Shown here piece by piece: positions 47,430-57,532 of a stretch of DNA of 64,000 nt. Under the pieces are notes generated by a model that was not told where the DNA came from, did no database searches, and saw only the letters and a program-made list of their open reading frames with translations. Each line of letters opens with the position of its first letter. Positions within the stretch are counted from its first letter, which is position 1. The DNA lies in the NCBI GenBank assembly GCA_965214095.1, contig OZ243938.1:1408001-1472000 (forward strand). The letters run 5' to 3'. Both the position numbers and the translations under genes were made by a program. This stretch comes from Candidatus Poribacteria bacterium. GTDB taxonomy: Bacteria > Poribacteria > WGA-4E > WGA-3G.

Positions 47430-47553
47430 ATTGTCCCTCCAGATGGTCTTATGAGAATTTTATATGTTCTTTGTTTTTTTGTCAACAATTTCTTTTTAGT
47501 GATTACGCGACTACAAGCATGAATGTCCGAGGCGCAATGAATTGGGCGGATTC

Positions 47554-47775
47554 TTGTTTGAACCAGGTTTTTCAGGATTGACAAGACAAGAGTTTGAAAC
47601 ATCAAAGTGCCATCCAGAGAATAAACGTTAAACTGGGAATAGGAACTTTGCAGAGCCAAACTCATAATCCTGAAAATCTACTAATCCTGAAAATCCTGGT
47701 TCAGACAAATAGCAATACAAATCCATAATTAAGTTAACGTTTGGGAATAATATTGAACAAAAATCCTAAAACTAA
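47554..47775. repeat. AATCCTGAAAATCCTGGTTCAGACAA family repeat
   Basis: Inverted pair at 47554-47579 and 47683-47708; block 47646-47775 recurs at 53631-53760. Confidence 0.75.
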
Positions 47776-47896
47776 TGGTTTATCTACTTTTATTTTAAGG
47801 GTAATATGATCGTAGGGGCGAGGTCATGAAGATTAATTTATTAAACGGGTAATACTCATTTACCCAAACCCGGTAGGTGCGGTTTCCTAACCGCAC

Positions 47897-49384
47897 CATA
47901 GGCGTCAATTTAAGGATGCACCAAGACCGATAAGTGTCAACTTTTAATCAGAGGAAGTATAAATTATGAAATAAAACTTCTGTAAAAATGAAAACACCTC
48001 ATATATAATGTAGATATAGATTTATTATGGTCTACAAAGAGGTGTTTCCTAATGAATACATTATCACAAGTTCCCAAAGAAATGCAACATATTCTTACAA
48101 CTATAGCCAATGATGCAGCTCTCAATACAGGTTTTGTCAAAAGAAGTTGTAAACTCAACGGTAGTCGTTTTGCTCAAATACTCATTTGGACTTGGTTAGA
48201 AAACCCAGATGCCACCTATACACAACTTGCGCAAACCGCTGGTGTGCTGGGGATTTCAATCTCACGACAAGCCATTGAACAACGATTTACATCTGAAGCA
48301 GCAGAGACCCTGAAAGTTATCCTTGATGCTACTGCGTCCAAGGTTATTTCTGCCGACCCGCAAACGCTTCCGCTCCTTGAAAAGTTCACTGGTGTCTATT
48401 TACAAGATAGTTCTTGGATTACACTCCCTGATGTGCTCCACGAAACTTGGGAAGGTGGAAGCAAAAAGAATAAACCGAACACAGCTGCCGTGAAACTCCA
48501 CCTGCGTTTTGATAGTGCCACAGGCACTTTTGAACACTTTGAACTGACCAATGGTATCACCGCTGATAGTGCTATTGAAAAGCAGATTGACATGCTACCC
48601 GCCGGCAGTTTGCGCCTCGCAGACCTCGGCTATTATTCACTTGATACCTTCAAAAGACTTTCCGATGCAAACGTCTTTTGGATATCACGCTACAAAGTCC
48701 AGTGTTTTCTCTATGATGAAACAGGTGACCCTTTTTGTTTGCTAAAATGGCTCAAGAAGGGTTCTAATAACTTCAAGGACAAACAAATCTTTATAGGTAA
48801 AAACAAGCGTCTCAAAGCACGATTAGTTGTTCAAAGACTTTCAGAAACAGAAACCCAACAGCGTATTAAGGAGATAAAACATCGTGCAAAGCGGAAGTAT
48901 ACGAAACCTTCACCAAAACGACTTCAGCTCGCAAGATGGAATATCTACATTACTAATATAAAAGTAGACCATCTGACTGCTGAACAGATTTGTGCTGTCG
49001 CACGCATCCGATGGCAGGTTGAGTTGATGTTCAAGTGCTTCAAAAGCATTGGAAAAGTTGATACCTCCCGTAGCGACAAGCCATATAGAATCTTATGTGA
49101 GTTATATGCAAAACTCATCGTCGCAATTATGCGGCACTGGATCATGTTAAGGGTCGGTTGGCGATGTCTAAAACATAGTCTAACAAAAACAGCAGAACTT
49201 ATTAGCACCTTCGCACGCACACTTGCAATAGGTTTCCGCAAGTCTATAATGTCTTTTCGGCAAACTTTTGATGAAATAAAACACGCTTTCCAAAATGGGT
49301 GCTACATTGAGAGACGTGCTAATAGAGACACAACATTAGAACACCTTGAAAATGCAGCAAAAAATCACTAAATTGACGCTTATG
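47897..49384 (+). mobile_element. IS4-family insertion sequence, 1488 bp
   Basis: TIRs CATAGGCGTCAATTTA / TAAATTGACGCTTATG (15/16); 20-bp direct repeats at 47877-47896 and 49385-49404. Confidence 0.9.
48052..49371 (+). CDS. IS4-family DDE transposase
   Basis: LQDSS, ADLGY and RIRWQVELMFK (YREK-like, with Y replaced by A). Confidence 0.92.
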   Translation: MNTLSQVPKEMQHILTTIANDAALNTGFVKRSCKLNGSRFAQILIWTWLENPDATYTQLAQTAGVLGISISRQAIEQRFTSEAAETLKVILDATASKVISADPQTLPLLEKFTGVYLQDSSWITLPDVLHETWEGGSKKNKPNTAAVKLHLRFDSATGTFEHFELTNGITADSAIEKQIDMLPAGSLRLADLGYYSLDTFKRLSDANVFWISRYKVQCFLYDETGDPFCLLKWLKKGSNNFKDKQIFIGKNKRLKARLVVQRLSETETQQRIKEIKHRAKRKYTKPSPKRLQLARWNIYITNIKVDHLTAEQICAVARIRWQVELMFKCFKSIGKVDTSRSDKPYRILCELYAKLIVAIMRHWIMLRVGWRCLKHSLTKTAELISTFARTLAIGFRKSIMSFRQTFDEIKHAFQNGCYIERRANRDTTLEHLENAAKNH

Positions 49385-49538
49385 GTGCGGTTTCCTAACC
49401 GCACCGGACTTCTCAAGGAAATTACCCAATTTATTTCTTAATCCTCATCACCTCGCCCTCTTCCAAATTACATAACCGTAATTTTAGAATGGACACTCCA
49501 CTAAATATCCCTGCCATATACGATGCTCAACAATTAGA

Positions 49539-49567
49539 TTGACATGTTGAACGTGTTCTGATAGGAT
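49539..49567 (+). promoter_or_regulatory. Sigma70 promoter of rfbB
   Basis: TTGACA-17 nt-TAGGAT. Confidence 0.55.
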
Positions 49568-49625
49568 ATTGTTATGCAATTTAAGTGTTTTGGAAGATTA
49601 AATACGTTCGATTTTAGGGACAAGT

Positions 49626-50666
49626 ATGAAATTATTGGTCACGGGTGGAGCAGGATTTATCGGGACGAACTTTATTAGATACTGGCTCAAGGAGTATCCA
49701 AATGATGATATAGTGAACCTTGATTTGTTGACTTATGCGGGAAATCTCGCCAATCTGACAGATATTGTATTAGCTTATACAGATCGGTATGTGTTTGTGC
49801 ATGGTGATATTTGTGATGATACATTCGTATCGGAAGTAATGGAGACACATCAACCTGATGTGATTGTCAACTTCGCGGCGGAATCGCATAATAGTCGTGC
49901 TATATTGTACCCGCGTGTATTCTCAGAAACAAATGTGATGGGAACACAAGTATTATTAGATGCTGCCCGTCAATACGATGTGTCTCGGTTTCATCATATT
50001 TCTACATGTGAGGTATACGGTGAACTTCCCTTGCATTCATCTGATGCGTTTTCAGAAACAGCCGCTTACCGACCACAAACCCCTTACAACGCATCAAAAG
50101 CAGCTGCCGATCATCTCGTCAACGCATACTTCCACAGTTTCGGACTTCCGATTACTATCTCTAACTGTTCCAATAATTATGGACCTTATCAGCATCCGGA
50201 GAAACTGATCCCGCTTTTTACGACGAATGCCATCCAAGATTTGCCATTGACACTCTATCGGAGCAGTCATAACCGCAGAGAATGGTTGCATGTTGATGAC
50301 CACTGCAGTGCGATTGCATCGGTTATTCACAACGGTAAGCTTGGAGAGACCTATAATGTCGGTAGTGGCGTTGAGAAAAGTATAGAGGAAATAAGCGATT
50401 TTATATTGGATGTGTTGGATAAGCCGCAAGACTTGAAAACTTATGTTCCCGACAGACCTGGACACGATTGCCGTTATCTGTTGAATTCCCAAAAAATAGC
50501 ACGTGAACTCGGTTGGCAACCAACAATACCGTTTGAAGAAGGCATGCGAAAAACAATTGCGTGGTACGTTGAAAATCGTGAATGGTGGGAAAAAATCCGC
50601 AAAAAACCTGACACAGAAAACGTTAAAGAGGATAAATGGGAGAAGTTCTCACAGCAAAAGAGGTGA
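49626..50666 (+). CDS. rfbB: dTDP-glucose 4,6-dehydratase
   Basis: TGGAGFIG, LTYAGN, FAAESH, YNASK, NNYGPYQHPEKLIP and DRPGHD. Confidence 0.92.
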   Translation: MKLLVTGGAGFIGTNFIRYWLKEYPNDDIVNLDLLTYAGNLANLTDIVLAYTDRYVFVHGDICDDTFVSEVMETHQPDVIVNFAAESHNSRAILYPRVFSETNVMGTQVLLDAARQYDVSRFHHISTCEVYGELPLHSSDAFSETAAYRPQTPYNASKAAADHLVNAYFHSFGLPITISNCSNNYGPYQHPEKLIPLFTTNAIQDLPLTLYRSSHNRREWLHVDDHCSAIASVIHNGKLGETYNVGSGVEKSIEEISDFILDVLDKPQDLKTYVPDRPGHDCRYLLNSQKIARELGWQPTIPFEEGMRKTIAWYVENREWWEKIRKKPDTENVKEDKWEKFSQQKR

Positions 50667-57203: not shown

Positions 57204-57532
57204 AGGTGTGTAAAGTTTTTGCCACCATAGGCGTTTTCCCCAGGCAGGTAGGTTCGGTTTCCTAACCGAACCTTATGTGTCAATTTAGTGCAAATTAGGC
57301 GTTTTCCCCAGGCCGGTAGGTTCGGTTTCCTAACCGAACCATAGGTGTCAATTTAGTGTAAATTAGGCGTTTCCCCAGGCCGGTAGGTTCGGTTTCCTAA
57401 CCGAACCGGATCCTATACGAGAACCTCTATAAAGGTATTTGGCGCAAACTCGGTTCGGTTAGGAAACCGAACCTACCGCTACTTGGAAGGACGCTAAATT
57501 GACGCTTATGGTGACAAGAACTTAACATACCT
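57204..57532. mobile_element. Nested non-autonomous IS4-ended elements with REP hairpins
   Basis: Three 67-68-bp units; right end 57495-57510 identical to the IS right TIR; outer 22-bp inverted flanks (18/22). Confidence 0.8.

Follow-up and report, generated by a model that had tools for sequence, protein, structure and literature searches.

A 64,000-nucleotide stretch of the genome of a Candidatus Poribacteria bacterium (contig OZ243938.1, positions 1,408,001 to 1,472,000; here called the window) harbours an intact insertion sequence (IS) that stands between two copies of one hairpin. The question raised by this locus is why an element of the IS4 family, whose published subgroups duplicate 7-13 bp of target, 'about one helix turn', in Table 1 of De Palmenaer et al. 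2008 (PMC2266710), should be framed by direct repeats of 20 bp, twice the length normal for it. The element (47897..49384, plus strand, 1488 bp) has IS231-like ends: its 15-bp terminal inverted repeats, CATAGGCGTCAATTT on the left (47897..47911, plus strand) and, read on the minus strand, CATAAGCGTCAATTT on the right (49370..49384), are identical at 14 of 15 bases, and the left one agrees with the IS231 signature CAT-------AA--TAA. A single open reading frame (ORF; 48052..49371, plus strand) encodes a transposase of 439 aa. The sequence-only reading of this DNA had put usual IS4 duplications at about 8-13 bp, close to the published figures, and had described the flanks correctly. The 20-mer GTGCGGTTTCCTAACCGCAC occurs at 47877-47896 and again at 49385-49404, both on the plus strand, as a perfect direct repeat around the IS; it is the stem-loop (8-bp stem, TCCT loop) of a repetitive extragenic palindromic (REP) element, whose GTAG tag lies directly outside the duplication (47873..47876, plus strand). 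The terminal C and G of the IS extend each flanking stem to 9 bp and restore, as had also been noticed, a 22-nt hairpin on either side, and both hairpins fold at -11.2 kcal/mol, with z about -6.6 to -6.9. With up to 2 mismatches allowed, the 20-mer has 9 matches in the window, compared with 0 expected from 100 shuffles.

The best explanation, to which we give as a whole a probability of about 0.68, is that the element is an active IS4-family IS with IS231-like ends and a Tn5-fold DDE transposase, and that its transpososome spans two helix turns and reads inverted GTAG|GTK half-sites, for which the REP palindrome is the best site available.

The first step is to establish that the 20 bp are a duplication. 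The 5.2-Mb genome has 13 full-length copies of the IS, all on contig C1 and 98.4-100% identical; the transposase ORF is intact and at the same offset in 11 of the 13, while two 1487-bp copies, with a one-base shift, are outside this count. An exact 20-bp direct repeat flanks every one of the 13 copies, which excludes chance as its source. Ten of these targets are the hairpin, in its GTG..CAC or GTT..AAC form, and at all ten the left and right hairpins agree in variant (GTT or GTG), in loop orientation and in stem mismatches, including one copy with a mismatch that is identical on both sides. The remaining three (C1 4200153, 4267269 and 4402194) sit in unrelated unique, non-palindromic 20-mers. 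The repeat element that hosts the window's hairpin continues on both sides of the IS (47812..47876 and 49405..49444, plus strand); its left flank recurs many times in the genome and in the genus, and a paralog of it hosts a sister copy of the IS, C1 2742881-2744368, in opposite orientation. The hairpins that received the IS are parts of larger repeat families, whose paralogs have a single hairpin running straight into the other flank: when the host-repeat family of the window's copy, which is listed under the sister copy at C1 2742881, was searched by blastn-short, 15 of the 19 rows listed displayed this arrangement. Among 723 hairpins (the set obtained at up to 2 substitutions) no two lie side by side at less than 10 bp, as an excision footprint or a double empty site would. 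Since the paralogous sites have a single hairpin and no pair is closer than 10 bp, the IS did not land between two pre-existing hairpins. The alternative that nothing was duplicated, the IS having either inserted between adjacent hairpins or carried a hairpin within its mobile unit, could draw on the frequent pairing of REPs and on four copies in a relative (G032) that, after orienting by strand, share the same 19-nt IS-left hairpin and have different right hairpins; in this genome it is contradicted by the single-hairpin empty sites, by the spacing of hairpin pairs, by the left-to-right agreement of variants and by the three copies that repeat unique sequence, and we find it barely credible. 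The flanking repeat is genuine duplicated target and comprises the entire hairpin, as the sequence-only reading had proposed, and the paralogous empty sites hold one hairpin and not two.

Smaller elements extend this set. The 15-bp element end (up to 2 mismatches) is present in 174 copies in the genome, most of them on non-coding MITEs (miniature inverted-repeat transposable elements) of ~171 bp, which share only their ends with the IS, contain an inverted hairpin pair and are presumably moved by its transposase. There are 36 IS and MITE events with matching flanks. The duplication measures 20 bp in 32 of these, 19 bp in 3 and 21 bp in 1. The 21 events at hairpin sites are all of 20 bp; the 15 at non-hairpin sites (3 IS and 12 MITE) are likewise long, at 19-21 bp, and short duplications outside hairpins, which the sequence-only reading had named as evidence against its proposal, were absent. 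Under a looser pairing of ends, 37 of 62 pairings with up to 4 mismatches give 20 bp.

Orthologous loci were compared as well. In four of seven loci from relatives of the same genus (L153, L155, L156, L158) the two genes that flank the IS lie next to each other with no IS between them, while L157 ends within the right-hand gene and L154 and L159 show the left gene only. No clean orthologous empty site was found among the seven, because the intergenic DNA is too different to be aligned between species: in G012 it measures ~120 bp and has no REP, and the G002 site (L155, about 2180-2500) is occupied by a different MITE, ~280 bp long and related at its ends, on both sides of which the same 20-bp hairpin stands as a repeat. 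Among short contigs from four sequencing runs (47500-49800) none spans an empty site with at least 31 letters on each side, the contigs breaking at repeats; one joint links 47808 with 49448, but one of its sides is supported by only 21 letters, and 16 foreign letters separate the two.

A MITE-like array with the same terminal repeats is found further along the window (57226..57510, plus strand). It has three left-end units, of which one is truncated and two are full; a spacer, an inverted hairpin and a single right end come after them. Each left-end unit ends in GTAG and a hairpin (hairpins at 57252-57271, 57320-57339 and 57387-57406 on the plus strand; the inverted one at 57453-57472 on the minus strand), and comparison of the outer flanks of the array gave no direct repeat. 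The IS-type left ends noted earlier at 57272 and 57340 are real and abut GTT..AAC hairpins at the same register, but they are internal junctions of this array and not separate IS copies. Similar tandem arrays of half-MITEs, with a period of about 58-68 bp and one complete opposite end, are located at C1 2057070-2057414, 1562320-1562559 and 4990821-4991128. Such arrays may have arisen when elements inserted, in nested fashion, into the hairpin of a MITE and the duplicated part was later lost.

The target itself is an abundant repeat. Hairpins with the exact core number 463 in the genome; the GTAG lies in a fixed orientation to the loop in 421 of these, and in 13 the loop is flipped relative to the tag, a sign that the loop may now and then be inverted within the 8-bp stem. 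Changes in the stem are compensatory, the variants being GTT..AAC (264), GTG..CAC (82), ATG..CAT (70) and GAG..CTC (7). Most hairpins are paired in inverted orientation, with 20-24 bp between the partners in 106 pairs and 45-49 bp in 94. Palindrome, tag and copy number fit the GTAG class of REPs, characterized in the account of Di Nocera et al. 2013 (PMC3733652) by a short palindrome, an unpaired GTAG at one end and high copy number. No REP-associated tyrosine transposase (RAYT) was found for this REP: there are 5 PF01797 (Y1) matches, 4 of them of 141 aa, and a hairpin lies within 600 bp of only one of the 5. The 141-aa Y1 (IS200-like) transposase copies, at C1 81623-81976, 2170036-2170389, 2385609-2385962 and 4230081-4230434, are not flanked by REP hairpins. 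One IS copy, C1 443699-445243, sits in a collapsed MITE with a single hairpin, GTAG on one side of it and CTAC on the other, so hairpin pairs can evidently collapse to one. Sister elements in G003, G005 and G007 insert preferentially into another REP family tagged with GTAG, whose 11-bp stem starts GTAGGTCGGGT; this second family also occurs in the genome studied here (G000), where one of its members, at C1 5180447, has served as the target of a MITE.

Insertion into the hairpin is both frequent and precise. The hairpins constitute less than 0.3% of the genome yet receive 21 of the 36 events, and 77 of the 174 ends adjoin a hairpin at offset 0, with 1 at +1 and none elsewhere from -40 to +30. 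It might be supposed that insertions occur anywhere and that only the harmless ones, in REPs and MITEs, persist. REPs are intergenic, 3 of the 13 IS copies are in unique sequence and the relative in G001 is mostly outside repeats, all of which such survival would allow; selection, however, cannot yield a single-base register within a hairpin, it does not explain why ATG..CAT hairpins, whose intergenic setting is of the same kind, are avoided, and the far more abundant non-hairpin intergenic DNA has received a minority of the events. We therefore consider survival without target choice very unlikely. As to orientation, 8 of 9 scored IS copies have their left end turned toward the tagged side of the REP (inspection by eye gives 9 of 10), and one MITE end type is so turned in 13 of 13 cases, which are non-independent owing to the arrays.

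Long duplications are not confined to this genome. About 800 relatives of 438-444 aa are present in public data. Among the elements of genus relatives, which have 65-75% nucleotide identity, the duplications are of 19, 19, 20 and 20 bp in G003b, of 17, 17, 18, 17 and 17 bp in G007, of 20, 19, 18, 19, 19 and 19 bp in G001, where the sites are mostly unique and non-repeat, and of 18 bp in 9 of 10 copies in G005 (6 of them exact). Many of 80 loci taken from Poribacteria-labelled records give 19 or 20 bp. Relatives on plasmids of Herpetosiphon (34.8% identity) and Chlorohelix (33.8% identity) give about 19-21 bp and 20 bp, respectively, each from a single copy whose ends are ambiguous by a base or two. 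The overall range in related elements of Poribacteria, Chloroflexota and Acidobacteriota is 17-21 bp. A deep clade of Tn5-fold transposases in at least these three phyla might attack DNA two turns apart, with half-sites or an extruded hairpin setting a stagger of 17-21 bp and whole REP hairpins being copied intact as a result; we put this forward tentatively, as a broader proposal that is about as open to doubt as to belief.

The exact length of the duplication follows the length of the hairpin, in agreement with what the sequence-only reading had expected. In G031, where one end family comprises a 1469-bp IS and ~235-bp MITEs and hairpins have 3-nt or 4-nt loops, all eight 20-nt hairpins gave 20 bp and all three 19-nt hairpins gave 19 bp, 11 of 11 events. 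The 80 loci include further 19-nt hairpins with 19 bp (L065, L078, L096, L098, L102, L103, L104, L134) and 20-nt hairpins with 20 bp (e.g. L055, L056, L061, L062, L092-L094, L105); a possible exception is L066, with 20 bp on a 19-nt hairpin and a doubtful end call. A record from Blastocatellia (Acidobacteriota; 36% identity) has a 21-bp repeat that is a perfect 21-nt hairpin, followed by CTAC. At the second REP family the sister elements all cut at one stem position, 3 bp below the loop of the 11-bp stem, and duplicate 17, 19 or 20 bp according to loop length, so that the earlier claim of a cut at the stem base is not supported there. The position of this cut and its dependence on loop length indicate that the cuts are placed by local features at both ends, with a ruler of roughly 17-21 bp.

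Does the transposase then recognize shape or sequence? The sequence-only reading had proposed the former: an extruded hairpin or cruciform is bound and both strands are cut at the stem base, whatever the sequence. The stem-base register is exact in 77 of 78 hairpin-adjacent ends, duplication length tracks loop length (19, 20, 21), and compensatory stem variants are also used, among them GCT..AGC and one with a 6-nt loop on a 7-bp stem. An IS of another family, IS1630, offers a second-hand precedent in inverted repeats of variable length. The non-hairpin targets point elsewhere. The palindromic character of these 15 sites does not exceed chance (on average 3.3 of 9-10 pairs match), yet such DNA received 15 of the 36 events, with duplications of 19-21 bp, whereas a complex built to hold a junction would not be expected to cut a duplex two turns apart. 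Because non-palindromic targets still give 19-21 bp, the long stagger has no need of a hairpin, and the hairpin is not what makes it long. The element in G001 likewise resides mostly in unique non-repeat DNA, with 18-20 bp, and the cut 3 bp below the loop of the second REP family is not at a stem base. An 8-9-bp stem with a 4-nt loop is, besides, short for cruciform extrusion. The non-hairpin half-sites (n=30) have a sequence in common: outside the cut, G in 16 at -4, T in 19 at -3, A in 13 at -2 and G in 19 at -1; inside it, G in 26 at +1, T in 14 or G in 9 at +2, and G in 15 or T in 11 at +3, against a background genomic G frequency of 0.20. Across the cut this reads GTAG|GTK, which is the sequence of the REP's tagged side. 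Hairpins of the same shape with an ATG..CAT stem are avoided, the element adjoining 1 of 70 of these compared with 52 of 355 G-start hairpins (Fisher p 6.5e-4); kin copies are non-independent, so that both this p and the half-site consensus are overstated. Recognition thus looks sequence-dependent, and the evidence favours a reading of sequence and symmetry two helix turns apart over recognition of a cruciform. Of the earlier proposal, the exact register stands, whereas the non-palindromic targets, the GTAG|GTK consensus and the avoidance of ATG..CAT hairpins speak against recognition of the hairpin as such; purely structure-specific targeting we judge unlikely, with perhaps one chance among several.

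The overstatement just mentioned is one of several points that weigh against two-turn sequence recognition. Some of the non-hairpin sites are within other GTAG-tagged repeats. The hairpin is favoured far beyond what a weak half-site consensus alone would predict, and the tracking of loop length through 19, 20 and 21 is most simply given by a structure-guided cut. Hairpin extrusion may contribute; the choice between duplex and extruded target is argued here from sequence evidence. Flanks in the relatives are often unmatched: in G032 only 2 of 8 copies are near-matching and in G003a 0 of 4 (loci including L140-L147 and L013-L016), and the left and right loops are inverted relative to each other in one G031 copy (L139) and in Blastocatellia L133. 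Nor were IS4-family duplications of 17-21 bp found in the literature searched, although they may be on record, ISfinder and the supplements of PMC2266710 being outside that search. We tentatively attribute the unmatched flanks to later rearrangement. Their source could be recombination between copies or gene conversion, or else pairs of hairpins that collapsed or loops that flipped, and recombination between copies has been suggested for ISRm22 in the account of Tobes and Pareja (PMC1525189). It was also observed that many of the relatives' IS copies adjoin hairpins at exact register on both sides although the two hairpins differ in variant, length or loop orientation; all 16 ends of the 8 copies in G032 adjoin hairpins at exact register, one copy having its loop inverted left versus right.

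The transposase was assigned by several searches. It matches Pfam DDE_Tnp_1 (PF01609) with an E-value of 1.9e-22 and NCBIfam transpos_IS4_1 (NF033592) with 195.9 bits (cut-off 115), while the match to NCBIfam transpos_IS1634 is weak (29.2 bits, under the cut-off of 100). An AlphaFold2 model with a mean predicted local distance difference test score (pLDDT) of 74.6 was submitted to Foldseek, and the five best matches are all Tn5 transposase chains, with E-values from 4.9e-10 to 1.2e-08 and 1muh_A on top over 412 columns. A profile search of PDB sequences with the transposase gave chance matches only (best E 0.85); the kinship with Tn5 is visible only by fold search because the sequence similarity is too low for the profile search. 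D119, D191 and E324 are invariant in an alignment of 26 relatives, with spacings of 72 and 133, and by their position they are the putative catalytic residues, in a DDE spacing that fits the D(60-110)D(100-150)E quoted for the family in PMC2266710. In the Y(2)R(3)E(6)K motif, R320, E324 and K331 are invariant and correctly spaced, while the Y position, 317, is Ala and the alignment consensus has no Tyr there. Among the best named plasmid matches is a Bacillus thuringiensis transposase annotated as IS231B (27.4% identity over 84%, E 3e-36), and Bacillus IS231-type genes are ~27% identical to this transposase. By protein and by fold the element belongs to the IS4 family, yet it misses that family's hallmark in duplication length.

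Comparison with known elements delimits what is unusual here. The IS231 subgroup of the Bacillus cereus group resembles the element in its single-ORF DDE transposase and CAT-------AA--TAA ends. The differences lie in the 20-bp duplication (19-21 bp overall), the ~27% identity, the Poribacteria-labelled host and the Ala at the Y of YREK. IS231A prefers a symmetric G...C target, GGG-N5-CCC. Within the subgroup many transposase pairs are above 50% identity, and Table 1 of PMC2266710 gives duplications of 10-12 bp for IS231 and 8-9 bp for Tn5. The IS231 figure comes from that source alone, since at an IS231B locus (L151) and a Clostridium copy (L150) the automatic end-finder gave no readable direct repeat. 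Tn5 (IS50), which the modelled transposase resembles in overall fold and DDE spacing, differs in its 8-9 bp against the 20 bp here. Long duplications are recorded for the DDE_Tnp_1 relatives IS1634 and IS1549 (IS1634 family, formerly IS4), but these vary widely from copy to copy, 8-514 bp in the figures of PMC2266710, unlike the narrow 19-21 bp of this element.

Targeting of REPs has precedents of its own. The text of PMC1525189 names REP-targeting ISs in five families, including ISRm22 (IS4), IS1397, ISKpn1, ISPsy8, ISPa11, ISPpu9 and ISPpu10. As described there, they use one fixed position in the REP palindrome, as the present element does, with ISRm22 inserting at the palindrome axis, but their insertion splits the REP, and the duplications measure 0-6 bp (none in ISPa11, 3 bp in ISPsy8, 2 bp in ISPpu9 and ISPpu10, 6 bp in ISRm22), whereas the present element duplicates the 20-bp stem-loop in full and leaves two intact copies. 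A parallel known to us second hand is IS1630 of Mycoplasma fermentans, an element for which inverted repeats are reported to be duplicated whole and duplications are long; it differs in its transposase family (IS30), its variable target sequence and its wider range of lengths. A 1999 report by Calcutt is said to describe IS1630 as targeting and duplicating inverted repeats of variable length. For its duplications, 19-26 bp are quoted in PMC2853133 and '16-, 23-, 25-, and 26-bp' in PMC3317919.

The mechanism that we propose for two-turn insertion would run as follows. The transpososome would link the two ends of the element to phosphates in the target that are separated by about two helix turns (19-21 bp, or 17-21 bp in relatives), instead of the family's roughly one turn. 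As a two-fold symmetric complex it would prefer two inverted half-sites, GTAG|GTK, at two-turn spacing, the target presumably being read as duplex DNA; the geometry of the complex is deduced in the same manner. The 20-bp stem-loop of the REP, a near-perfect palindrome of these half-sites, would then receive most insertions, always at the base of its 8-bp stem, and gap repair would leave an intact hairpin on each side. If half-sites fix the cut positions with a tolerance of about one base, duplication length would follow hairpin length. The same transposase may also move the ~171-bp MITEs with their two internal hairpins, which would give rise to nested insertions and arrays. What has been observed directly, in contrast, is the duplication with its length and register, its occurrence outside hairpins, the consensus of the half-sites and its spread among relatives.

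Duplication length is treated as a family hallmark since it mirrors how far apart the two active sites lie on the target DNA, and a narrow two-turn stagger within an IS4-family clade points to a different hold on that DNA. Possible causes are a strongly bent or wrapped target, active sites set wider apart or a higher-order complex. If the deep two-turn clade is real, the IS4 family would include a so far undescribed transpososome architecture, and the members of the clade would form a class of elements for which the REPs of a genome are landing pads that survive the insertion. The element itself shows a safe-landing strategy, its hit being so exact that the palindromic repeat survives on both sides, whereas the known REP-targeting elements split it. 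A sequence-guided target of 20 bp with single-base register could also be of practical interest for site-directed insertion. The proposal would further account for nested MITEs, half-MITE arrays and hairpin-framed elements, whose hairpins can be mistaken for parts of the element.

Two other features of this genome were noted. Its contig C2, of 32 kb, has 64% G+C compared with 41% in the main contig, contains no hairpins and no IS copies, and is perhaps of foreign origin. At 47549-47776, immediately to the left of the IS, stands a member of another repeat family (~230 bp), of which over 20 copies occur in this genome and many in G005.

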